64,000 bases of DNA from a virus (IMGVR_UViG_3300035670_000038:67303-131302), one strand, 5' to 3'; counted from the stretch's first letter, positions 6,425 through 50,255 are shown. The notes: a model not told the origin generated them from the sequence alone. Program-made: numbers and translations.

Positions 6425-7255
6425 ATGAAAAAGATTATAATGGTTTTTTCACTTCTCACGATGGTCGCTTGTAAGGAAGTGGTTTATCTTACTGGCCCAA
6501 CCGTCACCAAGACAGATACACTTGTAGTTTCTGGTGGACTGCAAAATGTGAATATTCGTATTGATTGGGCAAAGTTCAATAAGACGAATATTAGTAAACT
6601 CACTAGTGAACTTATGGCAAATGCGGTATCCGATAGTGGTTTGAGGATTACGCATGTTGGAGCACGTCTTGTGTATCCCAACAACAATGCTTCCTTCTCA
6701 CAGTCTGCCGCTCGTGACACTACCAATACTCGTTTAATTACGATGCAGGTTCCTCCTACCGACACCGCACATCTGTATGTTCTCGCGGTCTTTGATTCTG
6801 GGAGTGTTCGTAAGGCACTTAAAATGGGTGTAAAGCGTAATATTAGTATTCCTGCAAACGGGTCGGTTCTCTTTACTCTGGATTCGTTGACGTTACTGGA
6901 TACTGAGTGGACTATTGATTCTATTGCGGACAGTACCCTTCGTATGGTCAACGATACGATTCGTGTGACTTTATCAGATACACTCAGTACTGGAAATGTT
7001 CGAGTTCGTGTAACTGACCCTTATCAGATTGGTACGCAGTTTATCGCATATTCTAATCGTATCGTGAAGTTTTATGGGTCTGGATTTGAGTATGGTAATA
7101 CCGATGGCTGGCGAAAGTTTGGTATTGTAACAAACAATCGTGACACCGCAACGTCTACAGATACATTCTGGCCTTACATTGATGGTGTATTCTTTAATCT
7201 AAATGGTGAATATCTTGTCGGTAAGAAAGGTATTATTAAAACTACTTGGCAATAA
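6425..7255 (+). CDS. putative lipoprotein
   Basis: Signal peptide with lipobox MVAC. Confidence 0.55.
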   Translation: MKKIIMVFSLLTMVACKEVVYLTGPTVTKTDTLVVSGGLQNVNIRIDWAKFNKTNISKLTSELMANAVSDSGLRITHVGARLVYPNNNASFSQSAARDTTNTRLITMQVPPTDTAHLYVLAVFDSGSVRKALKMGVKRNISIPANGSVLFTLDSLTLLDTEWTIDSIADSTLRMVNDTIRVTLSDTLSTGNVRVRVTDPYQIGTQFIAYSNRIVKFYGSGFEYGNTDGWRKFGIVTNNRDTATSTDTFWPYIDGVFFNLNGEYLVGKKGIIKTTWQ

Positions 7256-8625
7256 TGAAAGATATACGGCGTGGATTACCTTCTGTTGGTAAACTGATAG
7301 AGAAACAGGTAATTCGTGATATGATGATGTCCTCTCCGCGTTCATTAGTTATGGACGCGGTTAGGGCTGCCGTTGATGATGTACGATTGAATCCCGATAT
7401 GATTCCCGACACGGATGAAAGTTGGGGAAATCTTGTACAAAAATATCTTGATAAGATGATGACTCGTTCACTTCGCACTGTCATCAATGCTACTGGTGTC
7501 ATCGTACATACTAACTTAGGTAGAGCACCACTTGCAATACCAGCAATCAATGCAATACGAGACATCGCATATGATTTCTCTAATCTGGAATATGATATTG
7601 AGAATGGTGTTCGAGGTTCACGACATACACATTGTGCCAAACTCTTATGTAAACTAACAGGTGCAGAAGATGCCATCGTGGTAAACAACTGTGCCGCAGC
7701 ACTGGTACTCACTCTCAATACCTTATCACAGAATAAAGAAGCAATCATATCCAGAGGAGAACTGGTGGAGATTGGTGGTAGTTTCCGTGTTCCCGATATT
7801 ATGGCTCGGAGTAATGCACAATTGGTGGAAGTCGGAACCACGAATAGAACACATCTCAAAGATTATGAAAATGCTATTACACCAAATACAGGTGCAATCT
7901 TATCGGTGCATAGAAGTAACTTTGTACAAAAAGGATTTGTATCATCTGTTCTTCCCGATGAACTGGTGTTATTATCGGAGAAATATAATATCCCACTCAT
8001 TCACGATTTCGGTAGTGGATTGATGGTTGACCTATCAGAATGGGGATTGTATGGTGAACCAACGGCAACAGATGCAGTCCGTGATGGTGCATCGGTGGTG
8101 ATGATGAGTGGAGATAAATTATTAGGTGGACCCCAGGCAGGTATTATTTTGGGGAAGAAATCTATAATTAAAATGTTAAAGGAAAATCCATTGGCACGGG
8201 CATTTCGTGTAGATAAACTAACTCTCGCAGCATTGGAAGCAACATTAGAATTGTATTATGATAAAGATATAGCAGTGAATGAAATACCAGTTCTCAGAAT
8301 GATTACGATGTCTCCTTACGAATTACATACCCGTGCTGCTAACATAGTTGACAAACTGGTAGAGATGGGTTATAATGTAAATGTGGTTGATTCGGAGGCT
8401 ACGATTGGTGGGGGAGCATTTCCTGACTCTAAAATAGACTCTATCGCAATTAGTATAAATGACATAAATCCAAATGAGGTAGATAAGAAGCTACGAGCAC
8501 TTGGAACACCTATTGTTGGTCGTATAGTAGATAATACATTATTATTAGATATGCGAACAGTTCCAGCAATATACGATGATATATTATACAGTAGTTTAAC
8601 CGAAGTATTAACCCTTGACAAATAA
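7246..8625 (+). CDS. selA: L-seryl-tRNA(Sec) selenium transferase (selenocysteine synthase)
   Basis: INATGVIVHTNLGRAPL, VNNCAAAL, ISRGELVEIGGSFRVPDIM, EVGTTNRTH, PLP-lysine motif SGDKLLGGPQAG, RAFRVDK; full length (459 aa). The start may be the ATG at 7255. Confidence 0.97.
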   Translation: MAIMKDIRRGLPSVGKLIEKQVIRDMMMSSPRSLVMDAVRAAVDDVRLNPDMIPDTDESWGNLVQKYLDKMMTRSLRTVINATGVIVHTNLGRAPLAIPAINAIRDIAYDFSNLEYDIENGVRGSRHTHCAKLLCKLTGAEDAIVVNNCAAALVLTLNTLSQNKEAIISRGELVEIGGSFRVPDIMARSNAQLVEVGTTNRTHLKDYENAITPNTGAILSVHRSNFVQKGFVSSVLPDELVLLSEKYNIPLIHDFGSGLMVDLSEWGLYGEPTATDAVRDGASVVMMSGDKLLGGPQAGIILGKKSIIKMLKENPLARAFRVDKLTLAALEATLELYYDKDIAVNEIPVLRMITMSPYELHTRAANIVDKLVEMGYNVNVVDSEATIGGGAFPDSKIDSIAISINDINPNEVDKKLRALGTPIVGRIVDNTLLLDMRTVPAIYDDILYSSLTEVLTLDK

Positions 8626-9047
8626 CTTATGAACGATTATATTCTATATCTAAGCTTGATGGTGATTGGTGGAGCAATCTGGAATATTAGAAATTATGTT
8701 AAGTATCTGGAAACTAAGAACGCAATACTACTTCAAATGCTAATGGAGAATGGTTATGACGCTGACTTGGCCCTACGGACCAGAAACGCTGACTCAACAT
8801 CTGAATAGATTTTCCAAGTATCTCCACCGCAAAAGAAAGTTTGATATTCCTAATCTGTCTGTGATGACTTATAATATGTACCTTCACTACAAGACGGAAA
8901 CTGGTGTACACATTGAACTGTATGAAGATTTGGCTCGTCCGTTAAAGAATAAAGTTCACTTATGGAGCTTAGGACAATTGCAAGATGTAGCGCAATTCCT
9001 AGCTAACAAGATACAAGTTCATCTTGGCGTGACAGCCGAACAATAAG

Positions 9048-9071
9048 AAACCCACCATTCGGTGGGTTTTT
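9048..9071. terminator. bidirectional intrinsic terminator
   Basis: AAACCCACC-ATTC-GGTGGGTTTTTT between convergent genes. Confidence 0.85.
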
Positions 9072-9076
9072 TATTA

Positions 9077-9697
9077 TTACTTAATTGGTAATCCAGTTAA
9101 TCGTCGTACACTATCCAACGGCACCTTGTGCATCTCAAATGATTTACTACGTTCTGGAACATTTGGAAACACATACGATTCTACTTGGTCCTTGTAACGG
9201 AGTACTTTCCAGCAGTGCGTTGGAACAGCAACTCTCTTGATTCGTGATACTTCACCCACACATCCCGCTTGAACAAATACAGAATCATTTTCTACAGCAA
9301 GAACACGAGTCCACTCTTCCAAGTTCTTCCACTGCCCACGATTAAGTCCTGGATATTGTGGTGCCATATTTGTGAAATAGAAACTTTCTGCCATATGAAC
9401 GTCATTACAACGTGCGTCTGCTGCTGGGGAAATGTGTCCTCTGTCAAATCCAGACTTTACATAATCTTCGTCAATATCACTTTCCTTACGAACTTGTGGG
9501 TCTGGAAGAAATTTATCGGTTCTCTTTGCGGGGGTCTTACATTCTAATTCACCACGGGTCGTTCCCCATTCTACTAAGATAGGATAGTGCAGTGACTTAG
9601 AAAACACAGAGATATAATTCTTATGAACGACACGAATTGTATCTTGTGCAGTCAAAGGTGAAACAAATAATACCAACAATAATAAAATCTTTTTCAT
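9077..9697 (-). CDS. secreted DNA/RNA non-specific endonuclease (NucA/EndoG family)
   Basis: Signal peptide MKKILLLL; FDRGHISPAAD, NMAPQYPGLNRGQWKNLE, VPTHCWK. Confidence 0.92.
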   Translation of the reverse strand: MKKILLLLVLFVSPLTAQDTIRVVHKNYISVFSKSLHYPILVEWGTTRGELECKTPAKRTDKFLPDPQVRKESDIDEDYVKSGFDRGHISPAADARCNDVHMAESFYFTNMAPQYPGLNRGQWKNLEEWTRVLAVENDSVFVQAGCVGEVSRIKRVAVPTHCWKVLRYKDQVESYVFPNVPERSKSFEMHKVPLDSVRRLTGLPIK

Positions 9698-9767
9698 ACT
9701 GTCTCCAAAAAGGTCATTCATAAATAGTTTCCTCACTATTTATAGATTGGATATTTCCGGAGGATTC

Positions 9768-11135
9768 ATGTCTCAGTATAAACTGGATATAATACCAAGT
9801 CAACTCTCTGATGCATTGGTAAACATCAACCAACATGGTAAAGATGGTTGGGAGTTCATACACTTATATAATAATATGGGTGTGTTTAAAGCAGCAGCCG
9901 CAGGGTCGATAACCAGCGGTTCTTTGAACCCAACCGCGGACGCATTTGGTCGTAATCGTGTATCCGAACAATTCACACTAGGTGACTACAAACATATCTA
10001 TGGAAATATTGCGGATACCTTCATCAATAAGTTAACTGGTGACGGAGATGTTTCATATAATATAAACGAGGCATCGGTTACCTTATCTGCTACCAATAGT
10101 GGAAGTTCTGCAATTCACCAAACCAAAATGTATCATCATTATATGCCTGGCAAGAGTCAGTTCATTCTTTCCAGTTTTGTGTTTGGTGCACCAGTAAATG
10201 GATCCACAAAACGTACTGGATACTTTGATGACCATAACGGTATCTTCCTCGAACAAGATGCTACGGGAAGTTTACAATTTGTTATCCGTTCCGCAACTAA
10301 CGGTACTGGGTCTATCGTAGAAAATAGAGTCAAACAAGAAAATTGGAATGTCAATACATTGTCAAGTGGTGATTTTACTCTTGATGTCACTAAATCCGCA
10401 TTACTATATATTGATTTCCAATGGTTAGCGGTTGGTCGTGTTCGTATGGGATTTATTCATAAGGGCATTGGAGTTATTTGTCACGTATTTGACCACACGA
10501 ATTTGACCGATGTGGCATATATGCAAAACCCAAATCTTCCAGTTCGATGTGAAATTATAAATTCTACAACTGTCGCATCGTCGATGGATCAAATTTGTTC
10601 TACGGTAGTGAGTGAAGGTGGATATAACGAAGCGGGTCGTGCGTTCTCTATTTCCAATGACAGTTTCCGCTCACTTACGAGTGGGTCAACTTTACCAATC
10701 CTCGCAATCAGATTAAAAAATTCTGTGAATGGGCTACCAAATCGTGCATTCGTTCGTTTACAAGAAGCAAGTGTATTCACTGACCAACAAAGTATTCGAT
10801 TCCTATTAAGTAAGTTACCTAGTGGGTCAATGTTAACCACAGCAAGTGCATGGGTGTCGGTGAATAACAATAATTCTTTGGTAGAATACAATACAAGTGC
10901 TACTGGATACACCGATGGAACTGTGTTACTCTCTGGATTCGTTGGGGCAAATTCTTTAAACCCAACACAAGCAAATCCACTAAGTACTACTAGAGGTGGA
11001 GTAGATAATAAGCAAAACTTCATTACACAAAATTATGATAGTACAGATAGTGAAATATATGTGTTAATTGCAAAGAACATGACCGCTAGTACAACAAATG
11101 TTGGTGGATCGTTATTGTGGTCAGAAATTTATTAA
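9768..11135 (+). CDS. probable virion structural protein (beta-rich, lectin-like)
   Basis: Ser/Thr/Gly-rich; DAFGRNRVS, YMPGKSQ, IDFQWLAVGRVRMG motifs typical of phage structural proteins. Confidence 0.55.
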   Translation: MSQYKLDIIPSQLSDALVNINQHGKDGWEFIHLYNNMGVFKAAAAGSITSGSLNPTADAFGRNRVSEQFTLGDYKHIYGNIADTFINKLTGDGDVSYNINEASVTLSATNSGSSAIHQTKMYHHYMPGKSQFILSSFVFGAPVNGSTKRTGYFDDHNGIFLEQDATGSLQFVIRSATNGTGSIVENRVKQENWNVNTLSSGDFTLDVTKSALLYIDFQWLAVGRVRMGFIHKGIGVICHVFDHTNLTDVAYMQNPNLPVRCEIINSTTVASSMDQICSTVVSEGGYNEAGRAFSISNDSFRSLTSGSTLPILAIRLKNSVNGLPNRAFVRLQEASVFTDQQSIRFLLSKLPSGSMLTTASAWVSVNNNNSLVEYNTSATGYTDGTVLLSGFVGANSLNPTQANPLSTTRGGVDNKQNFITQNYDSTDSEIYVLIAKNMTASTTNVGGSLLWSEIY

Positions 11136-11138
11136 CAT

Positions 11139-11789
11139 ATGCCATTATCATTAACTAATCAAAATGATGCAGGTAGTTTCGGTTTAACTGGAACAACAGG
11201 TAGATTCGCTGCTTCGGTCACAGTTGTGGCGGATAGTATTCGTGCATTCTTAACTGGCAGTTCTTCATCCTCATACGATGCTGCAGCAGTCAACACGTGG
11301 GTAAAGGTGACCCAAGCAGAATATAATAGTGTTGCTGCAAGATTGTCCTCCGTTACAAAGGTTGGTGCAACAGACTTACAGGTTAACACTAGACTTATCG
11401 CAACAGGATATAACCTTTCACAAACAAACGATTTTACCATACCATCCGACACATACATTTTTGGTATGATAATTGAACCATGGAATACTAATAGTTCTGG
11501 TAGTGTTGGGTATACCACTACCGTTACTGGTAGTATCAGCGATTACAATACTTACTTTGGTAATAATTTCGTAGGATTAATTGGTGGTGGTCGTAATTAT
11601 TTTATTCTTAAAAAACCAACCACAGCTACAACATCTACTGTGTATCCATTCGTAACGATGAGTGCTTCTCCAAATGGTATGAATTATGAAGGATGGGGTT
11701 GGACTGGAACGATTTGGCAATATACCACCGCGGCTTCTAACACGATGGCTAAATTCCAATTACTCACCACAACAAATAAACAGTGGTAA
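11139..11789 (+). CDS. probable virion-associated protein
   Basis: Thr/Ser/Gly-rich ORF directly after the structural-like gene. Confidence 0.4.
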   Translation: MPLSLTNQNDAGSFGLTGTTGRFAASVTVVADSIRAFLTGSSSSSYDAAAVNTWVKVTQAEYNSVAARLSSVTKVGATDLQVNTRLIATGYNLSQTNDFTIPSDTYIFGMIIEPWNTNSSGSVGYTTTVTGSISDYNTYFGNNFVGLIGGGRNYFILKKPTTATTSTVYPFVTMSASPNGMNYEGWGWTGTIWQYTTAASNTMAKFQLLTTTNKQW

Positions 11790-11812
11790 TAAATAGTATT
11801 TAATATAATACA

Positions 11813-11868
11813 ATTCTTAATGAAATCTTAATGTACGGGGACTTGTCTTAGGCAGGTTCCCGTATTAT
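11813..11868 (+). promoter_or_regulatory. 56-bp repeated promoter/hairpin element, copy 2
   Basis: Near-identical to 4075-4130; lies upstream of the MoxR AAA gene. Confidence 0.8.
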
Positions 11869-11912
11869 ATTTCTAGAGTAATGAAGTCCACACACTCTCT
11901 CTATGAGGCACT

Positions 11913-13079
11913 ATGACTACTCTGGTAAAGGTTCTCGACAACTTCACTGCGATTGACCACAACGGCAACGACATCACGGATGAGATTCCGTTCACCGCTC
12001 GTAAGCGTGCATACACGAATGGTGTCGCCCTTCGTATGGTGGCGACTAAGACGGGTAAGACGCAGTGGCGTGATACGGACCTCGCGGATTTCGAGGCGCT
12101 CCGTAAGACGGCGGTTCCTACGAAGCCAATTGAGAATGTGAAGAATGAGCTGGAGAATGATGTGGTGGAGTTCTTGAAGGATTGTGAGAAGGTCAAGCCC
12201 GCACATCTTATTATGGATTCGCTGAAGTGGCGTTATCTGATGCGGTCAGTCCTTCGTGGCAAGAATATTATGATGACTGGTCCTTCGGGTTGTGGTAAGA
12301 CCCTCGCTGCGCAGACCGTGGCTAAGGTTCTTGATGGTCGGCAGTTCTTCTACTTTAACGTTGGTGCAACCCAAGACCCGCGTTCTACTCTTATCGGAAA
12401 TACCCATTACAGCAAGGACAAGGGTACCTTCGTAGCGGAGGCTCTGTTCGTCAAGGCGATTCAGACTCCGAACGCTATCGTTCTCCTTGACGAGCTGACC
12501 CGTGGACACGCCGATGCGTGGAATATTCTGATGACGGTCCTCGACGAGAACCAGCGGTATCTTCGTATTGACGAGATGCCCGATACTCCGACGATTAAGG
12601 TGGCAAAGGGTGTGACCTTTATCGCTACGGCAAACATCGGTGCCGAGTATACCGCCACCCGCGTCCTCGACCGCGCGATGATGGACCGATTCGCTTCGGT
12701 GGTCGAGATGGAACCGCTGGGTAAGGATGATGAGGTCAAGCTTCTTACGATGACGTATCCTGAGGTGTCGGCACATAATCTGTCCGCTATCGCTGAGATT
12801 GCAGACCACACTCGTACTCAGGTTCGTAGTGATGACCCGAAGGTGACTACCTCTATCTCATCCCGTATGACTGTCGAGATGGCTGGTCTGTTGAATGACG
12901 GGTTCAATCTCGCAGAGGCGGCTGAGGCGTGTATCTATCCCTTCTTCTCTCCCGCTGGTGGTAATGACTCTGAGCGGACGTATATGAGGCAGTTGGTACA
13001 GAAGTTCTTCTCCACGGATTCGAATGGAACCCAGGCGCCGTGGGAGAATATCGCTAAGGACGAGAACACTCCGTTCTAA
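11913..13079 (+). CDS. MoxR-family AAA+ ATPase (CbbQ/NirQ/CobS-like)
   Basis: Walker A GPSGCGKT, Walker B LLDE, FIATANIGAEY, LDRAMMDRF, ISSR. Confidence 0.9.
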   Translation: MTTLVKVLDNFTAIDHNGNDITDEIPFTARKRAYTNGVALRMVATKTGKTQWRDTDLADFEALRKTAVPTKPIENVKNELENDVVEFLKDCEKVKPAHLIMDSLKWRYLMRSVLRGKNIMMTGPSGCGKTLAAQTVAKVLDGRQFFYFNVGATQDPRSTLIGNTHYSKDKGTFVAEALFVKAIQTPNAIVLLDELTRGHADAWNILMTVLDENQRYLRIDEMPDTPTIKVAKGVTFIATANIGAEYTATRVLDRAMMDRFASVVEMEPLGKDDEVKLLTMTYPEVSAHNLSAIAEIADHTRTQVRSDDPKVTTSISSRMTVEMAGLLNDGFNLAEAAEACIYPFFSPAGGNDSERTYMRQLVQKFFSTDSNGTQAPWENIAKDENTPF

Positions 13080-13249
13080 TGTGTAATTGCAAGAGATACG
13101 ACCCAGAGGGTGAACGTGATAGTGGGTACGCCTGTTACTATTGTAACGGGCGTATTCCCGTTCGTTCTATTCACCAAGAAAATGTAAATGGTAAAATCTT
13201 TTATTTCTGTTCTTCCGACTGTGCGCATCTGTGGTCAAGTATAGAGTAA
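13079..13249 (+). CDS. small Cys-rich TRASH/YHS-like zinc-finger protein (56 aa, not in the ORF track)
   Basis: Manual translation MCNCKRYDPEGERDSGYACYYCNGRIPVRSIHQENVNGKIFYFCSSDCAHLWSSIE; ATG overlaps the AAA stop. Confidence 0.6.
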   Translation: MCNCKRYDPEGERDSGYACYYCNGRIPVRSIHQENVNGKIFYFCSSDCAHLWSSIE

Positions 13250-13283
13250 ATGATATGTATAGAAGTACCCACTAAGAGGTTTT

Positions 13284-13847
13284 ATGAATCCACGATATAA
13301 TGTGATTATCCCAAAAATAATAAAAGAGAAAGTTCTTGATTTCGCTATGAATTCTGGACTATCTTATTTTAATATAAACGCGGACCCTCGTAAGGAAGCA
13401 GAGAAGGGGAAGCGTAGATTTGCTATGCTTACAGAGTATCCCGAATTGGAAATATCACAAATGGTAGATGCGTTCAAAGAAATCGCATACGAAGAAATTG
13501 GTATTGCAGAAATTCTACCCGAACCACAATTCGGTAATTTTATTGGTGTAAATTTAGAAGGTGGAAGTGTGCATGAACACCAAGATGCTCGTGATGAAAA
13601 TAATAATGTTCATCTCCGTTTTAATTTTATGATTCAGAAACCAGATATTGGTGGTAATCCTATCATTAATGGAAAAGAATATTGGATTGATGAGGATACG
13701 TGTTGGATGAACTACGCATCGGAATGGAAACATGGGTCAACACCTGTGGCGGGTTCACGTGCACGTGTGGTATTGAGTATGGGTGCATGTGTACCTGAAC
13801 ATATTGTACGAGAAAAGATTTCCAAAAAAATTGGATGGGAGGCATAA
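13284..13847 (+). CDS. 2OG-Fe(II) oxygenase
   Basis: HxD motif (HEHQD), GGNP, distal His (WKHGSTPV) and R (RVVLS). Confidence 0.8.
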   Translation: MNPRYNVIIPKIIKEKVLDFAMNSGLSYFNINADPRKEAEKGKRRFAMLTEYPELEISQMVDAFKEIAYEEIGIAEILPEPQFGNFIGVNLEGGSVHEHQDARDENNNVHLRFNFMIQKPDIGGNPIINGKEYWIDEDTCWMNYASEWKHGSTPVAGSRARVVLSMGACVPEHIVREKISKKIGWEA

Positions 13848-14683
13848 TGTTAGAAAATATACAATACGACAGAATTCTACAACCACAAGAGGATGGTTAT
13901 GATGTACAAATTTTTCAAGAAATTAAAAAGAGTCAGGGGTATGTTCCTATTGACTATCCATCTTCTATGGTTAAGTTTCACGGAAAGGTTGCAGTCCTTC
14001 CTCCGTCCGAACATGCGGTAGATTATCTCAACAATATTAATTTTGAACGTATAGCTAATTACTATAGCGCTGCTTGGGGTCTTGGGTACAATAACGTTCG
14101 TCAATTAGTTGACGCGTATATTCCTAACATTGACCCCAACACAAACTTCAGTGGTCAACATGATGGTGTGGAATTTGGACATCCAGGTGCATGGGGTATT
14201 ATGTCCTCATTGGTGACACACGACCCCGCAGCTACGTTGGCAAACTTGGTGCACGAACTAATGCATTGGAAGTTAGTCGCACTAGGATTTGGACTTCGTG
14301 CGAACACGTTCTTCCCAACCACACAAGAATTTATTCTAAACCACGAAAGTGAATTGTGCTGGTCTATTGTGAATAGTTACGCAGACACTGCACAACCTGC
14401 CGTTGGAAATAAACCAACTGACAGACCTGTATCCGCATCTCTTCACGCATATCTTTCATTCCTTGGTGTGGCGTATACACATACCCAAGTGTTGAAGATT
14501 GACCCAAACAACCAAGAATCGCAATGGAGAATGACACGTTGGGGTTCACGATTTGATAAGTGTTTGGATGAAATTTTTAAGGTTGGAAAGTTTACCCCGA
14601 AGGGACAACGTTTGATGATTGGTGTTGCAAAGTGGACATCTGATTTCTTCTATGAAGCACGACAAGTAGGTTACAAACTCTAG
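13847..14683 (+). CDS. aKG-HExxH-type (peptide beta-hydroxylase-like) protein
   Basis: LANLVHELMHWKL plus downstream DRPVSASLHAYLSF, like the RPxxxxLHAxxxF motif of aKG-HExxH proteins. Confidence 0.6.
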   Translation: MLENIQYDRILQPQEDGYDVQIFQEIKKSQGYVPIDYPSSMVKFHGKVAVLPPSEHAVDYLNNINFERIANYYSAAWGLGYNNVRQLVDAYIPNIDPNTNFSGQHDGVEFGHPGAWGIMSSLVTHDPAATLANLVHELMHWKLVALGFGLRANTFFPTTQEFILNHESELCWSIVNSYADTAQPAVGNKPTDRPVSASLHAYLSFLGVAYTHTQVLKIDPNNQESQWRMTRWGSRFDKCLDEIFKVGKFTPKGQRLMIGVAKWTSDFFYEARQVGYKL

Positions 14684-15325
14684 GAGGTTATATGAACGAG
14701 ATTTTATTAGCTCTTATTGGTTCAATCGCAATGATAGGATGTTGGGGGGCAATTATTATGAATTACGAAAAGCAAAAGGTAAAACAAGCAAATAAAGAAA
14801 AGAATATGTACGAAACGTGTGTATCGTGTGGTGAAATGGTACATGTCCGAAAGGATACACCGATTGACCAGAGGTTCTACTATGTGGAAGGTGCTGGTCA
14901 ATTGTGCCACGATTGTTATGATTATACCTATCGTAGTAAATAATATTTAATATACCACTTGACAAATATATAACAATCTGTTATATTTCAAGTAACCCTA
15001 ACCGTAAGGAGAAACAAATGCCGAAGGCGCCTGTGTTCAAGCATGGAGAGATGGTGGTGATTACGCATCCGACTGATGACCATTATCTTGATATGACGGG
15101 TGTAGTGATGCAAGAAGAGTATCGTAGTTACATCAATGACTACGTGTATTACGTCCGACTTGATGAAGATGGATATGAGATGGAATTCACGGCAGATGAA
15201 CTTACACTTGAAGAGGATATGTAAAATGGGTAAGACTTGGAAGGACAAGAATAAGTGGGAAAAGAAGCAAGAGGGGAAGAATATCAAAAAGACAAAGAAA
15301 GAACATAAATATTCTTCTGGTAGTA

Positions 15326-16066
15326 ATGAGGATAGAAACATCAATTATAACCGCATCTCTAGCTTCGAATGGTATGACTACGATTACGAGAACGATTAAT
15401 TATGTAAAGGATTACGATACGTTGTCCACGATGGCTGCGGATATCGTAAGGAAGGAAATACATAGAAGCAACACAACTGTACTTGGATTACCTACTGGTG
15501 GAACTCCCATCGGTATGTATGAGAAGTTGGTGAAGGATAAGACAATTGATTGGCGATTCGTCCAGACATTTAATCTTGACGAGTATGTGGGAATTGACCC
15601 CAACCATCCAGAGAGTTATAGAAACTTTATGGCACGGCATTTCCACAATCACGTAAATATCCCAAAAGAATATATCTACTTTCCAGACCCGAATAATCCA
15701 GAGAACTATGATGACCTCATCGCACAACGTGGGGGCATTGACCTGCTCGTAATGGGTATGGGGTCAAATGGACACGTGGCGTTTAATGAACCTGGAACGG
15801 ATATGATGTCTGAAACACATATTACGGACTTAAAGGAACAAACCATAAAGGATAATTCCCGTTTCTTCAATTCAATTGACGAGGTTCCAACCCAAGCGGT
15901 CACGATGGGACTACGAACTATCTTGGGTGCACAAAAGATATTGTTGTTGGTGACGGGAAAGAAGAAGTTAAAGGTTTTGCAAAAGGCTATCTGGAAACCT
16001 GACTATAGTATCCCTGTATCTATTATTAATAGTCACAGAAAGGTGGAGATATTATATTGTGATTAA
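15326..16066 (+). CDS. nagB: glucosamine-6-phosphate deaminase
   Basis: VLGLPTGGTP, TFNLDEYVG, GMGSNGHVAFNEPG, AVTMG. The start may be 15374. Confidence 0.95.
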   Translation: MRIETSIITASLASNGMTTITRTINYVKDYDTLSTMAADIVRKEIHRSNTTVLGLPTGGTPIGMYEKLVKDKTIDWRFVQTFNLDEYVGIDPNHPESYRNFMARHFHNHVNIPKEYIYFPDPNNPENYDDLIAQRGGIDLLVMGMGSNGHVAFNEPGTDMMSETHITDLKEQTIKDNSRFFNSIDEVPTQAVTMGLRTILGAQKILLLVTGKKKLKVLQKAIWKPDYSIPVSIINSHRKVEILYCD

Positions 16067-16571
16067 TAAGTTAATGGTAGTTGCTCATCCCGACGATGAA
16101 ACGTTATTCGGTGGTGGGGAACTGATTAAGCATGCAAAAGAATATAAAGTAATTGTATTAGATTATGGAAATCATATTACCCGTCATATTGAATTCCTAC
16201 GGGCAATGCAAATGATTGGTATAGAGAAGTGGGAACATTGGGATGGGGAACCCTACAAGACCTCTGCCGCATATAATGAATCTATCCTCATCCCCCGCAT
16301 AGAACGGGTCCTGGATGAGCAGAATTGGGATATGGTGGTCACTCACAATCAAGGTGGGGAGTACGGTCACTATCGGCATGTATCCACGCATAACGTGATG
16401 GCACGGCTGTGTCCTGAGAAATTATATGTATTTAATACGGACTTGACTACTCGACTTCCCGACGATATATTACATAAGAAGCACGAGGTACTTTCTACCG
16501 CATACCAATCGCAATATAACGTATTAAAATGGTTTCGATGGGAATATGAGGTTCTAACTAAATACCAATAA
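16059..16571 (+). CDS. PIG-L/LmbE family N-acetylglucosamine deacetylase
   Basis: VVAHPDDE, VTHNQGGEYGHYRH, YQSQ. Confidence 0.85.
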   Translation: MINKLMVVAHPDDETLFGGGELIKHAKEYKVIVLDYGNHITRHIEFLRAMQMIGIEKWEHWDGEPYKTSAAYNESILIPRIERVLDEQNWDMVVTHNQGGEYGHYRHVSTHNVMARLCPEKLYVFNTDLTTRLPDDILHKKHEVLSTAYQSQYNVLKWFRWEYEVLTKYQ

Positions 16572-16593
16572 TTTTAATCTCTACGGTCAAACT

Positions 16594-17178
16594 ATGTATA
16601 GAACACGAAACGGATTATCGGAGTCACGTATGGATAAGCAATACCGTGAAATGGTCAATACGCGTAGATTATATAAGTTTGAAGGAGAATTCTTTAATCT
16701 CCTACCTTACAGATATATGACCGTACAAATGAATCTCACCACACTCAGAAATATTGCTAAAATATTGTGGAATGGGGAAAATACTACGTGGTTTTCGATC
16801 CCTGAGGTTCGTTTCGGCAAAGGATTATATCACGGCACCGCCAGAGGCAAAAAATATTATTATAGCTGGTGTGACCGACAAACTATTGAACTCGCTCCCA
16901 CTCAACGTGATATCTTGACCTTGATACACGAAATGGTACACGCATTGGGGTATGGATACCACGATACGAAATTCGTGGGGAAGTATATTGAAATGTTGGT
17001 CAAGTACGCAGGGGTTCCAAAGAAAGAACTTATCCAAGGCATGCAACACTATAAGGTCGCTCTTCCACGTAAATACAAGAGGTTATATAAATGCCAAGAC
17101 TCCCACAAGGTACCATCACGCTCACCGCGCAAAGGTGGATGGACTTCCAAACAGGGAAAGTCCAAAAAAACCCGTTAA
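16594..17178 (+). CDS. HExxH (SprT/WLM-like) metalloprotease-domain protein
   Basis: TLIHEMVHALGYGYHDTKF. Confidence 0.6.
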   Translation: MYRTRNGLSESRMDKQYREMVNTRRLYKFEGEFFNLLPYRYMTVQMNLTTLRNIAKILWNGENTTWFSIPEVRFGKGLYHGTARGKKYYYSWCDRQTIELAPTQRDILTLIHEMVHALGYGYHDTKFVGKYIEMLVKYAGVPKKELIQGMQHYKVALPRKYKRLYKCQDSHKVPSRSPRKGGWTSKQGKSKKTR

Positions 17179-18796: not shown

Positions 18797-18839
18797 CATA
18801 GTAGGTAGGATAAGGCGGATATACCCCATATAGAGGTAT

Positions 18840-19907: not shown

Positions 19908-19922
19908 TTTTTATTTTCTCCT

Positions 19923-38843: not shown

Positions 38844-39578
38844 GTGCAGAACAATCTGGTGAAGAAGATGCGTAAACTATTAACATTACTATTCATTCCA
38901 AGTATCTTATCTGCCCAAGTCGTAGGTAAGACACAAACCGAACAATACCGTGCATCATTTGAACAAAAGAGTGATTGGGAAGCATTGATGGATTATGATG
39001 GTCCAACCATCCCTATTCAAATCTTATCATTGGGTATCGGTGAAGAAGTATATGCGATGTACCCAGAACTCAAAGATAATCGTGTTGGATTGGGTGTCAC
39101 CAACATTGTTATTGAATTCTTGGAAGAAACTAATCGTTTTACCTTCACAGAAGATAAGACAGAAATCAAGAATCGTATGGTAAAGCAGTTTCAAGCATCA
39201 CAATCAGGTATTACTGCTAACAAATTAGATGGTCGTGGTAAGATTATGTTGGCACGATATTTCGTATATATCGAAGTATACGATTATTCTGTAAGTGAAG
39301 ATGAAACTATCAATATGAAGGATGGAGTCAAGAATACGGTAGTGACTCGTCTAGGTTTACAAGTTCGTTTCGTAGACGCAGAAACAGGTCAATTCTTCAC
39401 TGGTTCGGGATTAGGTGAAGCCAAGACTGTTCGTGAATTGACCCTTATGAATGATGACAACTTTGGTGAAGTGAAATTCAATCAAAGTACCATCGGTACA
39501 TCAACCAAGAAGGCATTGGAAGATGCAGCAGCAAAGATTGTTACCCGTATGATTAAACGAGAAATATTTAAATCATAA
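38844..39578 (+). CDS. CsgG/HfaB-family curli-secretion-like protein
   Basis: GLGVTNIVIEFLEETNRF, ARYFVYIEVYDYS, LGLQVRFVDAETGQ. The start is probably 38868, with a signal peptide. Confidence 0.65.
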   Translation: MQNNLVKKMRKLLTLLFIPSILSAQVVGKTQTEQYRASFEQKSDWEALMDYDGPTIPIQILSLGIGEEVYAMYPELKDNRVGLGVTNIVIEFLEETNRFTFTEDKTEIKNRMVKQFQASQSGITANKLDGRGKIMLARYFVYIEVYDYSVSEDETINMKDGVKNTVVTRLGLQVRFVDAETGQFFTGSGLGEAKTVRELTLMNDDNFGEVKFNQSTIGTSTKKALEDAAAKIVTRMIKREIFKS

Positions 39579-42357: not shown

Positions 42358-43380
42358 ATGGTTATGATTATTTACGCCGATGTTATTGTAGATTTACAAG
42401 CGGGTGATACTGGAAAGGGTAAGGTAGCTCACGCTATTGCCAAAGACTACGACCTCGTAGTTCGGTATAACGGTGGAGCAAACGCCGGTCATACTGTATA
42501 TCACGATGGTAAAAAGGTTGTAACTCACCTTGTTCCTATCGGTGTATTGTTTGGTATACCAAGTGTTATTGGTTTGGGTTGTGTAGTAAACATCAAGAAG
42601 TTAGAACAAGAAATTAAAGATTTAAATGACGCGGGATTCAATACCGATGGGTTAATCTTTGTTGATGAACGTGCACATTTAGTACAAGATAAGCACATCG
42701 AAGAAGATAGTACAGAAAGTAAAATTGGAACTACCCGTCAAGGAATTGGTCCAGCGTATCGTGATAAGTATAACCGTACTGGTGTTCGTATGAAGGACTT
42801 AGGTATTCAACCTTCTCCGTTGTTCTCGGTTATTGATACTTACGAGTTGTTTCATAATAGAGGAAACGATTGGCGGGTTCTTTGTGAGGGTGCACAAGGA
42901 TTCCAGATTGATATTGATTGGGGTGACTATCCATATGTCACCAGTTCACACTGCACAGTTGGGTCGGCAATCTTGAATGGTATTCCACCAAAAAAGATTG
43001 ATACGATATTTGGAATTATGAAGGCGTACGAAACCTATTCGGGGTTCAAGACTACTTTTCAAGATGAATCTGACCCTGACCTCGAAAAAATCCAAGAAGC
43101 GGGTGGTGAGTTCGGAGCCACTACTGGACGTAAGCGGAAGGTTCGGTGGTTAAATCTTGATGGGGTTATTAAAGCTATTAACATCAACGGGGTCACGAAC
43201 CTTATCATTAATAAAGCAGATATATTACAAGAAGTAAATGTATTTAAATATGTCTATCAAGATGTCTTATATGAATGTTCTTCATTAGATGAGTTTATGA
43301 GTGAAATAAACGATATCATATATGAAGATACTTCATCAATATTTGATATTACTTGGTCAATGACGCCTAACGGAATTTAA
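42358..43380 (+). CDS. purA: adenylosuccinate synthetase (short form)
   Basis: GDTGKGK, GGANAGHT, IGTTRQGIGPAY, EGAQG, YPYVTSS, GATTGRKR, NKAD. Confidence 0.9.
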   Translation: MVMIIYADVIVDLQAGDTGKGKVAHAIAKDYDLVVRYNGGANAGHTVYHDGKKVVTHLVPIGVLFGIPSVIGLGCVVNIKKLEQEIKDLNDAGFNTDGLIFVDERAHLVQDKHIEEDSTESKIGTTRQGIGPAYRDKYNRTGVRMKDLGIQPSPLFSVIDTYELFHNRGNDWRVLCEGAQGFQIDIDWGDYPYVTSSHCTVGSAILNGIPPKKIDTIFGIMKAYETYSGFKTTFQDESDPDLEKIQEAGGEFGATTGRKRKVRWLNLDGVIKAININGVTNLIINKADILQEVNVFKYVYQDVLYECSSLDEFMSEINDIIYEDTSSIFDITWSMTPNGI

Positions 43381-46300
43381 TCACTATTTACTATAGTAGT
43401 ACTTGACAAAAGTTTAACCGAGAGTTAAGATGAACAAGTTAGAAAAATTTGTTGTACCCGTAAATGTAATTGTTTATGGTGAAGATGCGGATGATGCAAT
43501 AACTTATGTAGAAGAAGCATTGGATAGTAGTTCCTTTATCACAGAAGATGGTCTAATTGGTGCCGAAGTAATGGCAGATGATGTAGAACTTTTTGAAGAG
43601 GATTACGACGATGATGATGATGCAGACTATGAGAACGAAGATTAATTGGGGTAATGTTAAGTTTTGGATGTTACTAATCGGTATTATTGGATTTACCGTT
43701 TGGAGTATAAACGTTGATGTTACAACAAATGAAGAGTATAAACAAGTAGCATGTCCTTCATTACTTAGTATCGCACGTTCTTCTCGTGATACACTTATTG
43801 TTATGAAGAATGTAGATGCTTGTAATGAATATATGATGGAAAACTTGAAATGAGGTTATTATGGACTCTACAGAATACGAGAAGCAAGGATTTTTTATAG
43901 GAGCTGGAGCCACTATTAAAACTTCTGGTTTACGAGTTGTGTTAGTGTCCAATCCAAAAACAGATGAAGTGGACGGACAAACTCGTGCATGGGTAGCTAT
44001 GGAGTTTGACACGCATGTTAGATATTTAGCTATATTGGATGATTTAAAACTAAACTAATAAGTTATATCAACAAATTACCTATTAGTAGTATGAAACAAA
44101 GTACCGCAACAGACGCATTGTGTATCACCGTATTTATTTTTGGTGTACTGGTTGGAACGTTTATGCATGGACACATTTCGTGGCATGACATAATTGCAGC
44201 CTTAACAGCAGGAAGTATATTTGGTATAATTAGAATGACCAAATTTAAACTACTTATTAGAAAGGTTTTGCGTAAATTTAGCAAGACACACTAATGCCAG
44301 AAATAAATATTTTTTCAACCGAGGCTGCAGCCGCAGGTGGTGCAGCGATAGTAGGTGGTATATTCTTTAAGTTGATTGAAAAACTATGGTTAAGTAAAAC
44401 CGTAGTTGATGAACACGCTGTTCTTCGCAAGGAATTACGTGAAGAGTTAGATGCGGTGAAGGATGAAATCGCGTCCCTTCGTGATGAAGTTGACGAATGG
44501 CGTGAAAAGTATTATAGTCAAGTAGAAACAACCAATGAGTTGTTGTTCGAAGTCAGTGTATTAAAAACTCGTCTACGTAAGTACGAATCCGATTCGGGCG
44601 AGTTTAATCAAGATGATTTCTAGTATAATATATACCGTTACGGTAATTGACCTTCGTAACTTACTTCCTTTGGGAATACGAAGAACACCGCTAATTTGTA
44701 CTGATTTAGAAGATGCTATATACGCGGTAAAAAATAATTTACGAGATTTGGCGGATGGATCGTCATATCAATATGCAGTAATTGAACGTAATGTTTTAAA
44801 TGAAGTTCGTCCCAATCTTGAACACGATAGTATGAGATTGTGGTATAAATACAATTCTGTGATTGATGAGTTTGAATCGTGTGAGGCACCTGCTGCACTA
44901 CGTAATCAAACAGGATTCGGAATTGGTTAACTAAGAGGTGAATGTGCAAAATTTTATAATTGGTTTATTGGCAGGTGGCTTTTTAGTTGGAACAATAGCA
45001 GTGGTAGTAATGATGGCAAAAGCTATATCAATATTAGCAGAGACATTAACTATCATCAAAACCATCTATATTGAAGGAAACAAAACACAACAGATGGTAC
45101 AAGCGACAATGGAAGCTTCCGAAAATTTTGTGGACGCTTTAAACTCTGCTACATTAGAAATGGAAAAGCAGCAACAACAGCAACAGGGATTCTTTCAAGT
45201 ATTTAGAACCCAAGATGGTAAGCATGTCGCACCATCGTTTGAAAAGTTAATAGAAAAAATGAAAAACGATCCTGACTACAGTAAAATTACTGAGAAGGAT
45301 ATGGAAGAGCTTCGTCGTTTATTTGAGGAAAACTCAAACGATGATGAGGACGATAGTGATGAAGAACCTAAAGAACCCTGGAAAGGGGAGGACGAATGAT
45401 TCCATCTGATAAGGAAATCGCACGTTTGGTAAAGAAGTTGAGTGGAAAGCATCCACAGAAGCAACAGAAAATTAAAGTAGAAAAAGAAGAACACGATGAA
45501 GAAATTCGCCGTGCATCAGCAGACGATATTTTTCGTGAAATGAAGAAGCTGCCGTTTTCGGGCTGATAGTCACTACATATAATACAAATCCCGCATGAGC
45601 GCTCGTGCGGTCAATAATACATTTTAAGAACTGCATACTTAGTTTTTAAGGGGCTTTCTCCTGCCCATAGATGCAGTTGTAAAGAAAAGAAAAAGAAGCA
45701 AAAAGAAAAGAAAGAAAAACTAAAATAAAACATGAATAAAGAAAAAGCAAAAGAAAACATAAAGTCAGGATGGCATAGCCTGTTAGATAAGGTTTATGAC
45801 ATAGCAGACGTATTGCCTTTTGCTAAAATAGCAGATATTAAGTTAAGATATTCTATGCTGCAAATTATTTTCGAATCATCCCTTGACAAATCACAGCAGT
45901 ATGTATTAGATTCTATAGCGTATAAGATAGAAAGAGAATCAGCAAGAATATGTCAGGAATGTGGTAAGAGTGGTAACAGAAGAAAAGATATAGCTGAATC
46001 ACCCTGTCTATGTACAACGTGTTATGCAATACAGTATAACGAAATGATGGAGTCCGTGTCACCACAGGTGACGAATCAAGAACCTCAATAACGAGGTGTT
46101 TATGTTCTGGCAAGCAGAAGATGTACAACCAGCAGTAAAGGTAGTCACAGAAGTTTTTGGTCCCGTAGGTCGTATGGAAACAGGTAAAAATGTTCTGTAC
46201 AATGTTTCTATCTTCTCCAGGCAATATGGTAAGCTCTGGTATGGAGATTTGGTCAATGAAGGAATTTCCGAAAAGTTGACCACCCTCAGCACTAAGTTGG

Positions 46301-47101: not shown

Positions 47102-48238
47102 ATGCGGTTGCATCTATTAGGTATTCCGCATACTCAAACTACTTACGAGTTTAGCCATTGTGCGTTTACTGGTAAGGTGAAACGGTTTGCTCCTATGATG
47201 CAATCCGTTGGATATGACGTTATTCATTATGGTGTAGAAGGAGCACACAGTGGTGCTACGTATGATGTAAATTTAATATCGTTTGATGAATGGACTGGTA
47301 TTCGTACAAAGTTATTTAAAGAAATTTATGGTGACCGTGATTCTATGCCATCAGACTTTATCGGTGACTTGGCAAATACTGGTAACGAATTATACCAAAC
47401 GTTTAATTCGAGATTGAAAATACAATTGGGTAGAAATCTTGATAAGCATGATATCATTTGTTTACCATTTGGATTTGCTCACGACACAGCAATCAAAGAC
47501 TTTCCGAATCCAAAAGTAGAAACTGGTATTGGCTATCCGAATTCATATCAAGATTTTAGAATATTCGAAAGTAACGCATGGTATCATTACGAAATTGGTC
47601 GTGAAGGAAGAAGTGGTCACGATTACCATTGGGTGATACCAAATTACTTCAAGGTCGATGATTGGGACTTTAATCCCACACCAGAAAACTATATAGCATA
47701 TTTTGGTAGACTTTCACACATCAAGGGTGTTAACATAGTAGCTGAGCTGGCAGAAGCTCGTCCAGATATCCAATTTAAGATTTGCGGTCAAGGTGACCCT
47801 AAACCGTTTTTGACATCTCCAAATATCGAATACGTTCCACCAATTCACGGACGGGAACGTTCGAAGTTTTTAAATAATGCTATGGCAGTAATTATGCCAA
47901 CACGATACGTAGAACCTTTCGGTGGTGTAACTGTAGAAGCAGAACTTTGTGGGACACCCGTACTAGGTTCATCGTTTGGTAGCTTTACTGAAACAATAGA
48001 ACACGGAAAAACAGGATATCAGTGTAGGACACTTGGTGACTACTTGGCAGGTATAGAACAAATAGAAAATGGTGCAATATCTCGTGAATATGTACGAGAA
48101 TTTGCAGTAGAACATTTTGATATGTACAAGTTAGCACATAAATACGATGCAGCGTTCAGACAGATAAATGATATATCAACTGATAAAGGATGGTATAGTA
48201 GACGGTCAGGAATAGGTCCGGTGACGAGGGCAAAATAG
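47102..48238 (+). CDS. GT4 (GT-B) glycosyltransferase
   Basis: YFGRLSHIKG, PTRYVEPFGGVTVEAELCGTPV, ETIEHGKTG. Confidence 0.88.
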   Translation: MRLHLLGIPHTQTTYEFSHCAFTGKVKRFAPMMQSVGYDVIHYGVEGAHSGATYDVNLISFDEWTGIRTKLFKEIYGDRDSMPSDFIGDLANTGNELYQTFNSRLKIQLGRNLDKHDIICLPFGFAHDTAIKDFPNPKVETGIGYPNSYQDFRIFESNAWYHYEIGREGRSGHDYHWVIPNYFKVDDWDFNPTPENYIAYFGRLSHIKGVNIVAELAEARPDIQFKICGQGDPKPFLTSPNIEYVPPIHGRERSKFLNNAMAVIMPTRYVEPFGGVTVEAELCGTPVLGSSFGSFTETIEHGKTGYQCRTLGDYLAGIEQIENGAISREYVREFAVEHFDMYKLAHKYDAAFRQINDISTDKGWYSRRSGIGPVTRAK

Positions 48239-48333: not shown

Positions 48334-48672
48334 GGGCCTGTCATGGTTTCGACGGGATGTGGATGATTGAACGTTGTGCCTCGTTTGGTAATACGAGTAA
48401 AACAGACCAAAAAATCTAACTGGCACACAAGAATTTGCCCTCGCTGCTTAATGCAGCCTGACGATTTGACCTGACCCATATACGGTCACTTCGTTCATAA
48501 CATATGGTGTAGTATTGGAGAGGGGAGTTAGTATCCAATATCAAATTTACAAACTCTTGTCTACGTGGTTTCGCTGATTATTCAAAACGTAGAGACACCT
48601 TACAATCAGCTACGCACATAAACACTCAGTAGAAAGCAGACTCGGACGCGGGTTCGACTCCCGCCAGGTCCA
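48334..48672 (+). ncRNA. ssrA: tmRNA, tag peptide (A)GTQEFALAA
   Basis: Ala-type acceptor GGGCCTG/CAGGTCC-A with G3:U70; GGTTTCGAC 5' motif; T arm GCGGGTTCGACTCCCGC; tag ORF 48422-48451 after TAACT. Confidence 0.95.
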
Positions 48673-48995
48673 TAAAAATTGAAGGTTGTGTTAATAATTT
48701 ATAGGAGGTAGAGATGTATGTGTTCAAAATTATTAAACGCATCTTTGATTATGTATATTCTCCAATGTCAGTAGAAACTACCCAACTTTTACTAGAAGAA
48801 GCTGACATAATAATGAAGAACATCAAACTTGCAAAGACGTTGGCTGCGTTGTTAGAACAAAAAGCAATATTACAAAAGTTTCGTGGTGCAGTAAAATTAG
48901 CTGGTACACCACCTGAAGTAAAGAAGAAGTTGGTGTTTCTCGAAGCACAATGGAACCGCCAGTTTAGGATTTGGAAAACAAAAGGATAAGTTTGT

Positions 48996-49625
48996 ATGTT
49001 GATTAATTCCAAAATATCTGATGAAAAATACATTTGGTTGAGAATACCAAGAACTGCTTCAAAGACATACGGCAGAGTATTTTTTCCAGAAGGGAATTAT
49101 GAACACAGACATAACAATTATTATCACGAAACGTATACTTACGGTGAGTTACCCGCGTTTTCCGTTGTTCGGCATCCGTACACACGATTTGTATCGGCTA
49201 TAAAATTTATCAGTAAACAGCAACGACTAAACAGTAATAATAGTAAATTTAAATTTGTCTTTCCGTATCAAAATATTGAAGTTTTGTGTGAGTTTTTAAA
49301 TGAAAACATCTCTAAGTTACAAAATGTGTTTTCACAAGGTGTATTTGAAGAGGTATTTAAAACAGATGACGTTAGTTACATAAAAATGTTTTTTATTCCA
49401 CAACATCATTACGTAGGGTTTCCACCTGTAAAAATTTTTAGGTATGAAGCATTAGATGAATTTAATAAGTGGATTGAATCTACGTTGGGTTTTGATACTA
49501 GTAAAACAACGAAGCACAATAGCTCAGCGGATGAATTACCACACATAAACTTTGAGCATCCTGAATTTATAAGCATTACACAAAGGTTATTTGAAGAAGA
49601 TTACAAATTTTTTGGTTACGTTTAA
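48996..49625 (+). CDS. sulfotransferase family 2-like protein
   Basis: RIPRTASKT (5'-PSB-like), VRHPYTRFVS (3'-PB-like), FRYE, EDYKFFGY. Confidence 0.8.
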   Translation: MLINSKISDEKYIWLRIPRTASKTYGRVFFPEGNYEHRHNNYYHETYTYGELPAFSVVRHPYTRFVSAIKFISKQQRLNSNNSKFKFVFPYQNIEVLCEFLNENISKLQNVFSQGVFEEVFKTDDVSYIKMFFIPQHHYVGFPPVKIFRYEALDEFNKWIESTLGFDTSKTTKHNSSADELPHINFEHPEFISITQRLFEEDYKFFGYV

Positions 49626-49643
49626 CCTTAACTTGGAGGCACT

Positions 49644-50255
49644 ATGGACGAGAACAATTCCCATGAAGCGGAACCTATCGTTATTGGTATCCCACCAAAA
49701 CCAGGTGAAGAACACTTACCAGCAGAATTAAGAACATATGGTATCATGGAGTCCAATGGATACAAGATTCTTACTGGTATGGGTATGCATGGTGGTGGTG
49801 GTATCACATCAGAAGGATTCGACTGACCAATGTTGCGTAATTGGGTAGTCCAGTTTGGACACGCCCCGGGAATTCGCGCAGGAGATGAACGGCTTACACC
49901 AGATGAACGAGGAAAGTACATTGACCAAATCGGCCGTTTTTATGGATGGAACCCTCCGCCAACTATGAGTTGGGTGGTGGAGATTACCAAAGATTTACAC
50001 GGTAAACATCCTGGAAAGTATATCGCTTGTTTCATGCGCTACGTAACAGATGCGGAAGCTGACAAGCTTCTCGGTACACGTTATGATGAATATAGTCATC
50101 TTAATGCACAATACGAACATCTCGCAGCAGATAATGTTGGTGCAGGATGCAGTATTGAGCCAGCAGTTGAACCAGAAGTAGTAGAAGTTGTAAACACAAG
50201 TGAAGAATCATCTGCGACTACTGAAGATATCTTTAGTTTGTTAAACATTAAATAA
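49644..50255 (+). CDS. candidate selenoprotein (203 aa, Sec at codon 61, TGA 49824-49826)
   Basis: ORFs 49644-49826 and 49830-50255 are in the same frame, separated only by TGA-CCA; SECIS-like hairpin at 49834-49880; selA/selC/selD in the same genome. Confidence 0.8.
49834..49880 (+). promoter_or_regulatory. bacterial SECIS-like hairpin
   Basis: TGCG/CGCA, AATT/AATT, GGGT/GCCC and GTCC/GGAC stems; AGTTT apical loop 25 nt after the TGA. Confidence 0.72.

Follow-up and report, generated by a model that had tools for sequence, protein, structure and literature searches.

Selenocysteine (Sec) decoding is regarded as a cellular trait that viruses are known to borrow for single genes. The stretch of viral DNA analysed here (64,000 nucleotides, referred to as the window) raises the question of whether a bacterial virus can supply its own Sec-tRNA and make its own selenoprotein, as had been proposed in an earlier note made from the sequence alone. 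The window corresponds to bases 67303-131302 of one 131,302-bp IMG/VR virus record (IMGVR_UViG_3300035670_000038, G000 in what follows), and in it the note had placed selA, selD, a tRNA-Sec(UCA) gene (selC), and a gene with an in-frame TGA and a hairpin resembling a selenocysteine insertion sequence (SECIS). All four elements are real and lie where they had been placed. We consider it probable that this is a phage equipped with three of the four bacterial selenocysteine genes and with a UGA gene of its own, which uses the seryl-tRNA synthetase (SerRS) and the SelB of its host. At the gene level the original proposal is supported, with SelA, SelD, and tRNA-Sec all scoring above their thresholds and the UGA gene bearing the signature expected of a selenoprotein.

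CheckV described the whole record as linear and about 67% complete, so that gene absences in G000 hold for its recovered part. The source is an uncultured T4-like phage with a genome of roughly 200 kb, because of its PHROG matches and of a collinear relative with a T4-type Gp23. These matches comprise a T4-type replication module (DNA polymerase, phrog_262, E 8e-186; a DnaB-type helicase; a UvsX-like recombinase; ribonucleotide reductase), a DNA helicase and an amidase/endolysin and, in the window, a CobT-like protein and a virion structural protein (phrog_1645, E 9e-92, 9747-11135). Both ends of G000 are collinear with this relative (G003, 148 kb) at about 67–88% nucleotide identity, and G003 spans the part of the genome absent from G000, where the Gp23 capsid gene is found (243 bits); the structural protein and this capsid gene are the virion genes that confirm the phage identity. 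Neither Gp23 nor Terminase_6C had a match in G000, and a phage megablast with window positions 1-20000 gave zero matches.

The selA gene is full length, as had been claimed. Its product scores 555.9 bits on TIGR00474 (equivalog cut-off 267.9) and 476.3 bits on the Pfam family SelA (PF03841, E 8e-143), and the N-terminal tRNA-binding domain (Se-cys_synth_N, PF12390) is recognised with 31.3 bits against a cut-off of 22. Residues 5-446 align end to end with the Aquifex SelA 3W1H (E 1.3e-112), and the GDKLLGGPQAG block, which contains what we take to be the pyridoxal-phosphate-binding lysine, is identical in both proteins. The TTG at 7246 had been given as the start, but the ATG at 7255 is likelier because it forms a TAATG overlap with the stop of the preceding ORF (open reading frame) and because the database copy has 456 residues. 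The order of this upstream ORF and selA is kept in a contig of 4,182 nt that comes from a run of another study, lies on 5769-9788 with 309 differences (about 92% identity), and extends across both selA junctions. The composition of selA is phage-like and fits long retention: GC is 0.396 and third-position GC (GC3) 0.289, the averages for the 104 ORFs of 450 nt or more being 0.392 and 0.343, and its codon usage correlates with that of the remaining genome at 0.77 (mean 0.76). The region is flanked by the CobT-like protein (window 4162-6423) and by a MoxR/CbbQ-type AAA ATPase (11913-13079). Between selA and selC there are a non-specific DNA/RNA endonuclease (9077-9736, minus strand), a glucosamine-6-phosphate isomerase/6-phosphogluconolactonase-like gene (15326-16066), and a PIG-L deacetylase-like gene (16059-16571).

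The tRNA-Sec of the 8/5 type proposed earlier is also confirmed, with 57.7 bits on Rfam RF01852 (gathering score 47) at 18696-18792, over model positions 1-91. It folds with an acceptor stem of 8 bp, a T stem of 5 bp, an anticodon stem of 6 bp, a long variable arm, and the anticodon UCA, and the G and CCA of its GCCA end are encoded, up to 18796. Right after the tRNA a 15-nt motif is present in three direct copies with a spacing of about 20 nt (window 18840-18900), at the junction of plus- and minus-strand gene blocks, where GC rises (0.49–0.51 over 20-28 kb).

SelD, whose earlier coordinates also stand, reaches 377 bits on TIGR00476 (cut-off 125) and 341.9 on NF002098 (cut-off 299). In an alignment to E. 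coli SelD 3U0O, the Cys and Lys of the N-terminal glycine-rich loop are conserved (CAGCASK in the phage, GAGCGCK in E. coli); these are presumably the catalytic residues numbered Cys17 and Lys20 in SelD. The gene is an insertion between phage genes, because the flanking genes are adjacent in another viral contig (G001), about 111 bp apart. By blastn synteny, window 29730-31285 corresponds to G001 2326-3872 and window 33329-36407 to G001 3984-7082, the 111 bp separating a GmrSD/HNH gene from a 175-codon ORF. With a GC of 0.465 and a GC3 of 0.424, selD is less ameliorated than selA, so the long-term retention that had been read from phage-like codon usage stands for selA and less so for selD. 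The gene adjoining the insertion (window 29732-31138), common to G001, combines a GmrSD_N-like domain (below the Pfam cut-off) with an HNH nuclease domain. As noted before, selA, selC, and selD occupy three separate loci, each of them single and with phage genes on both sides.

Table 1. Position of the selenocysteine-related features, counted from the first letter of the window.
Feature	Position	Strand	Details
selA, L-seryl-tRNA(Sec) selenium transferase	7255-8625	+	456 residues; alternative TTG start 7246
ORF translationally coupled to selA	6425-7255	+	276 residues; stop overlaps selA start; no Pfam or PHROG match
selC, tRNA-Sec(UCA), bacterial 8/5 form	18696-18796	+	RF01852; encoded CCA
selD, selenide, water dikinase, Cys type	31277-32311	-	344 residues from ATG; alternative GTG start 32338
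2-kb stretch without counterpart in G001	31286-33328	-	selD and ORFs 32304-32675 and 32782-33267 (nothing in Pfam for either ORF)
Candidate selenoprotein gene	49644-50255	+	203 codons; Sec at codon 61; GITSEGFD-U-PMLRNWVVQFG (translated with TGA=U)
In-frame UGA (candidate Sec codon)	49824-49826	+	C always next
SECIS-like hairpin	49841-49869	+	lower helix 49841-49845/49865-49869; apical helix 49848-49852/49856-49860; loop GUU 49853-49855

The UGA gene and its hairpin

The internal UGA of the gene at 49644-50255 most likely encodes selenocysteine, since the locus has the comparative signature of a selenoprotein gene. A GGAGG site precedes its ATG and the frame is open from the TGA on to the end. 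Profile scans of IMG/VR gave 12 related viral loci, five of them close and seven at 41–54% identity, and in all 12, as in the window, the TGA occupies the same in-frame position, within GITSxGFD-U-PMLRNWV[VT]QFG. The residues on either side of it are the best-conserved part of the protein. Termination is known to be weak at UGA-C. An exhaustive database search returned 11 matches, namely seven pieces starting at residue 63, two N-terminal pieces ending at residue 60, one spurious repeat protein, and one protein spanning the site (P0135). The latter, 117 residues long and without interruption, shares 46% identity with the query and has Cys exactly at the TGA position (...ATD-C-RLLRNWVTQFG...). 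In a word-index database search all 11 matches were C-terminal pieces of 132–150 residues starting at the Met two codons past the TGA. This would be a new selenoprotein family hidden by standard gene calling, all database entries but one being split pieces. An Atlas search with P0135 returned nothing usable.

The hairpin starts 14 nt downstream of the UGA, and its 3-nt loop, with G in first position, begins 29 nt after it; the numeric criteria for bacterial SECIS elements (bSECIS) are 16–37 nt after the UGA and a loop of 3–14 nt. The RNAalifold consensus of six distinct nucleotide versions contains a lower helix (columns 18-22/42-46), a 5-bp apical helix (25-29/33-37), and the GUU loop. The two phage groups differ in the apical helix by two compensatory changes (G-C to A-U and U-A to C-G), and one sequence shows a wobble pair instead (C-G to U-G). 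Pairing is kept in 100% of the apical cells and 95% of all cells, vs. 17–62% when the 3' partners are slid, and the covariation score was matched by 3 of 500 shuffles. The in-frame-TGA gene with a SECIS-like hairpin is therefore borne out by the TGA kept at every related locus, the Cys of P0135, and the co-varying hairpin. A lack of any conserved UGA/SECIS gene in related phages, which the earlier note named as a possible refutation, is not what we find.

The product would be a 203-residue, phage-specific selenoprotein of no recognised family. A first AlphaFold model (8 sequences) was poor, with a predicted local distance difference test score (pLDDT) of 48.9; a core model (25 sequences) reached a pLDDT of 70.2 and a predicted template modelling score (pTM) of 0.62, with low confidence around the Sec loop. 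The neighbours of the gene (two sulfotransferase-like ORFs, an HNH endonuclease, a UVR-motif protein, and an HD-like protein) provide no functional lead.

Around the UGA gene there are also a GT4-like glycosyltransferase and the two ORFs just mentioned, which are Sulfotransfer_2-like (window 47102-48238, 48996-49625, and 51491-52186), and a transfer-messenger RNA (tmRNA) lies about 1 kb upstream of it (window 48334-48675; RF00023, 109.4 bits, full model). In the distant group of related loci (L117, L119, and L120) the gene is directly followed by an ORF with a CxxxCxxC stretch, radical-SAM-like judging by its translation alone. Other same-frame ORF pairs across a TGA in G000 (84-2231, 37499-38902, and 92402-91818) were considered as selenoprotein candidates and ruled out as ordinary gene borders, having their own ribosome-binding sites or, in a sister phage (L111, see below), an extra gene between them.

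Origins, host, and proposed mechanism

The nearest cellular SelA and SelD appear to be those of Gemmatimonadaceae. The phage SelA falls in a well-supported clade of 28 database clusters (66–100% identical) on a long stem, which nests among SelA proteins named Gemmatimonadota. In the scan of species-representative genomes (genome_contigs), the five best SelA were all from metagenome-assembled genomes (MAGs) of Gemmatimonadaceae (G011-G015), at 51–54% identity, with none above 54%. SelD has relatives 77–92% identical on short contigs, followed by proteins at 59–66%, including some named Gemmatimonadota, and no cellular SelA or SelD exceeds about 66% identity. The comparison of both proteins with cellular homologues that had been recommended points to the Gemmatimonadota, of which the host is probably a member. 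All five Gemmatimonadaceae genomes have a SelB above the cut-off (310–380 bits), and in all five selD contains one in-frame TGA (L211-L215). The motif CAG-U-A[SA]K was seen by pattern in four of these five loci (the pattern missed L213), and the phage SelD has Cys (CAG-C-ASK) at the very position of the cellular Sec. From these motifs, the phage SelD would need no Sec itself and that of the presumed host would.

Other collections contributed less. Single-protein scans of viral_contigs found no close relative of the phage SelA or SelD, and a profile scan of metagenome_contigs with generic patterns gave, among the matches listed, bacterial SelA alone (up to 60% identity). A SelA relative (P0143), 91% identical to that of the phage, is carried by a 228,277-bp metagenome contig. 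The SelD found in metagenome SelA loci is distant (42–48% in full-length matches), there is no selB beside selA in one of these loci (L018), and a tblastn of SelA against the phage collection yielded matches of at most 48% identity alone, in unannotated or bacterial records filed there.

The sole other viral contig with selA that IMG/VR yielded is the sister phage L111 (9986-11320, record G006). Its neighbouring proteins are mostly 72–97% identical to those at 34-49.5 kb of G000; the exceptions are an extra gene and a more diverged protein (42%). The selA of L111, at another locus between homologues of G000 43035-43655 and 43625-43867, shares only 53% identity with that of the window. A single origin of the two phage SelA groups is rejected by the approximately unbiased (AU) test (cost of 92.4 log-likelihood units, p-AU 3.8e-5), the constraint group having been chosen after the first tree was seen. 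These data suggest that sister phages captured selA twice, independently, and hence point to selection for the function, and they would argue that the supply of Sec-tRNA is limiting for these phages in nature. The UGA gene itself seems to be an older, shared trait to which the sel genes were added as a supply line in some lineages, because the relatives keep it with no sel genes in their recovered parts and G001 lacks selD at the syntenic place.

What we observe is that the sel genes and the tRNA are present, intact, and in a phage context, together with the comparative signature of the UGA gene; from this we infer who the host is, that its SerRS and SelB are used, and that each part is active. 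In the mechanism that we propose, the Cys-type SelD would make selenophosphate, the host SerRS would charge the phage tRNA-Sec(UCA) with serine, and the phage SelA, by its predicted activity, would convert Ser-tRNA(Sec) into Sec-tRNA(Sec). The SelB of the host would then bring this to the UGA at codon 61, guided by the hairpin. The sel genes would be add-ons that secure the supply of Sec-tRNA during infection.

We also put forward, tentatively and with somewhat less than even confidence, a wider interpretation in which a freshwater/subsurface T4-like lineage depends on a phage-specific selenoenzyme of new fold and has captured host genes repeatedly (selA at least twice and independently, plus selD and selC). 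In the course of this, SelD would have changed from Sec to Cys, so that selenophosphate could be made without pre-existing Sec, unlike in the presumed Gemmatimonadota host. If true, a virus would for the first time be seen to carry a pathway for the synthesis of an amino acid that is genetically encoded but non-standard.

Points against and other explanations

Several results weigh against a phage that makes its own selenoprotein. The delivery step would rest on a SelB of the host, and nothing above cut-off was found for SelB (TIGR00475), an EF-Tu-type GTPase (PF00009), or the SelB winged-helix domain (PF09107) in the 131-kb contig, itself incomplete. PF00009 likewise has no match in G001, G003, or G006, all of them fragments, G003 covering the region missing from G000. 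Selenocysteine genes are also missing from the tested relatives, all fragments (4–72% complete): selA and selD are found in none of nine records with the UGA gene, and no tRNA-Sec exceeds the gathering score in eight of these (all but G005). The tRNA-Sec of the window was not called by ARAGORN, and cmscan flags three non-standard pairs in it. As for the UGA gene, P0135 is the sole Cys homologue known, and the covariation of the hairpin is real but thin, a modest signal from six distinct sequences in two clades, in effect about one event of evolution. The number of pairs changed on both sides does not stand out from shuffles (122 of 500), and the 67-nt fold of the single sequence is not unusually stable (z -0.99). 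In the cellular selD genes the hairpin differs in sequence and its loop measures 5 nt, about 19 nt past the UGA, vs. 3 nt at 29 nt in the phage; this speaks neither for nor against use of the same SelB. The protein has no match in Pfam (E up to 1) or PHROG and its C-terminal piece none in NCBIfam; Foldseek gave no PDB match at E <= 0.001, and the best Z of a wide VIA-align search was 3.0.

The absence of selB from the window, recorded in the earlier note, extends to the rest of the contig. The note had left open whether the gene lies elsewhere in the genome or is borrowed from the host, and with no EF-Tu-type GTPase in either G000 or G003 borrowing is the better supported of the two and a location elsewhere in the genome the less supported. 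Neither serS nor selU was found in the recovered part of the genome.

Among the other explanations, the one that survives best is that the sel genes are auxiliary metabolic genes for host selenoproteins or other selenium chemistry. It overlaps with a supply of Sec to the phage's own gene and does not exclude it, and it would account for three sel genes that are scattered with none beside the UGA gene, for relatives whose recovered parts hold that gene without them, and for a Cys-type SelD, which could bypass the Sec-dependent SelD of the nearest cellular lineage. We regard it as unlikely nonetheless, given that the phage tRNA-Sec and SelA yield Sec-tRNA alone and that the contig has a single recognisable UGA/hairpin gene, which belongs to the phage; selU not having been found there, a role in selenouridine formation is unsupported.

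It is very unlikely that 49644-49826 (a 60-residue peptide) and 49830-50255 (a 141-residue protein) are two genes, with termination and re-initiation at TGA-CCN-ATG. An ATG is found two codons past the TGA in 12 of 12 related viral loci, and every gene caller annotates the 141-residue piece alone. Against this, both parts share the same frame in all 12 loci, and the intervening Pro codon varies at its third base alone (CCA, CCG, and CCC). At these loci a ribosome-binding site lies ahead of the upstream ATG and none ahead of the inner one, P0135 is a single continuous protein in which Cys stands for the TGA and Leu for the Met, and the co-varying hairpin is located inside the second part. One gene read through its UGA as Sec is what these features suggest.

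Recent passengers, inactive or decaying in the phage, are a similarly poor description of the sel genes. It could be argued from selD, which is part of a 2-kb insertion absent from G001 and within a block of higher GC. However, the ORFs of selA and selD are full length with their catalytic residues kept, the composition of selA matches that of the phage, and the SelA clade (28 clusters on its long stem) and the SelD relatives suggest purifying selection, only two contexts having been seen.

Still less probable is that the UGA is read by suppression or read-through as an ordinary amino acid, or that TGA is reassigned, with the tRNA(UCA) acting as a general opal suppressor. The anticodon is indeed UCA and some large phages recode stop codons, but TGA is otherwise an ordinary stop in G000 and not reassigned, because it ends 55 of 186 ORFs in a greedily chosen set, and read-through would be needed in one gene alone. 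Moreover, the tRNA scores above the gathering threshold of the Sec model (8/5, 6-bp anticodon stem, long variable arm) and co-occurs with SelA and SelD, as expected for Sec insertion.

The least probable explanation is a chimeric assembly of host and phage, or an admixture of host DNA, at the sel loci, as the higher GC of the selD region and the bacterial nature of the nearest cellular relatives might suggest. A chimera is unlikely because of the phage-like composition of selA, its overlap with the upstream phage gene, the bridging contig of a different study, and the position of selD between genes shared with an independent viral contig (G001); the sister phage also has selA, and cellular SelA and SelD are at most about 66% identical. 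The assembly artefact that the earlier note had considered as a refutation is thus not borne out. Contigs of a run, X1, which may be the source sample, span 6237-7357 and 18265-18830 with zero differences. The sequencing runs listed as carrying this sequence include no RNA dataset.

Comparison with known systems and other genes of the contig

The phage set resembles the bacterial selA-selB-selC-selD system (E. coli, with fdhF as prototype) in its SelA and SelD families, its 8/5 tRNA-Sec(UCA), and a hairpin within the ORF after the UGA with G first in the loop. Unlike it, the set is virus-encoded, is distributed over three separate loci with no selB found, and has as target a phage-specific protein of no known family. 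With the Gemmatimonadaceae it has in common the SelD motif CAG-x-ASKMGPG, at about 51–60% identity for SelA and 60–66% for SelD, but their selD has an in-frame TGA (Sec) in five of five cases where the phage has Cys, and the phage genes have phage-like composition. Among eukaryotic viruses, poxviruses have glutathione-peroxidase homologues in which UGA is redefined as Sec by the host machinery; to our knowledge, viruses of this type have neither Sec synthesis genes nor tRNA-Sec, and they use a SECIS in the 3' untranslated region and a known enzyme family.

Concerning phages, three huge wastewater phages have tRNA genes assigned to selenocysteine (PMC10747093). They are likewise large, with many tRNA genes including one for Sec, and the parts of that article available to us name no selA, selD, SECIS, or selenoprotein gene. 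Phages with 8/4 tRNA-Ser and tRNA-His, not tRNA-Sec, are described in the accessible part of another report (PMC5389517), and viral sequences were scarce or absent among the selenoprotein families of the GOS data, according to the portion seen of a third (PMC9402790). A full-text literature search, with most subscription journals outside its reach, retrieved no description of a phage selA, a phage selD, or a phage selenoprotein. The combination of selA, selD, tRNA-Sec, and a UGA gene is undescribed for a bacterial virus in the literature searched. If our interpretation is true, viruses invest in the expansion of the genetic code for their own proteins. The compact and naturally co-adapted set of selA, selC, and Cys-type selD would be of interest for engineering Sec incorporation, and it would provide a lead to the host (Sec-using Gemmatimonadota) of an abundant uncultured phage group.

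Two further features of the window are unrelated to selenium. A short adenylosuccinate-synthase-like gene (window 42358-43380, 340 residues) is under every PurA cut-off and scores 122.6 bits on the PurZ model (cut-off 300); its product may be a PurZ-like enzyme. In addition to the tmRNA found with Rfam, G000 has 24 tRNA genes by ARAGORN, which form an array mixed with ORFs (window 52815-63999) that reaches the end of the contig and is collinear with the arrays of G001 and G003.

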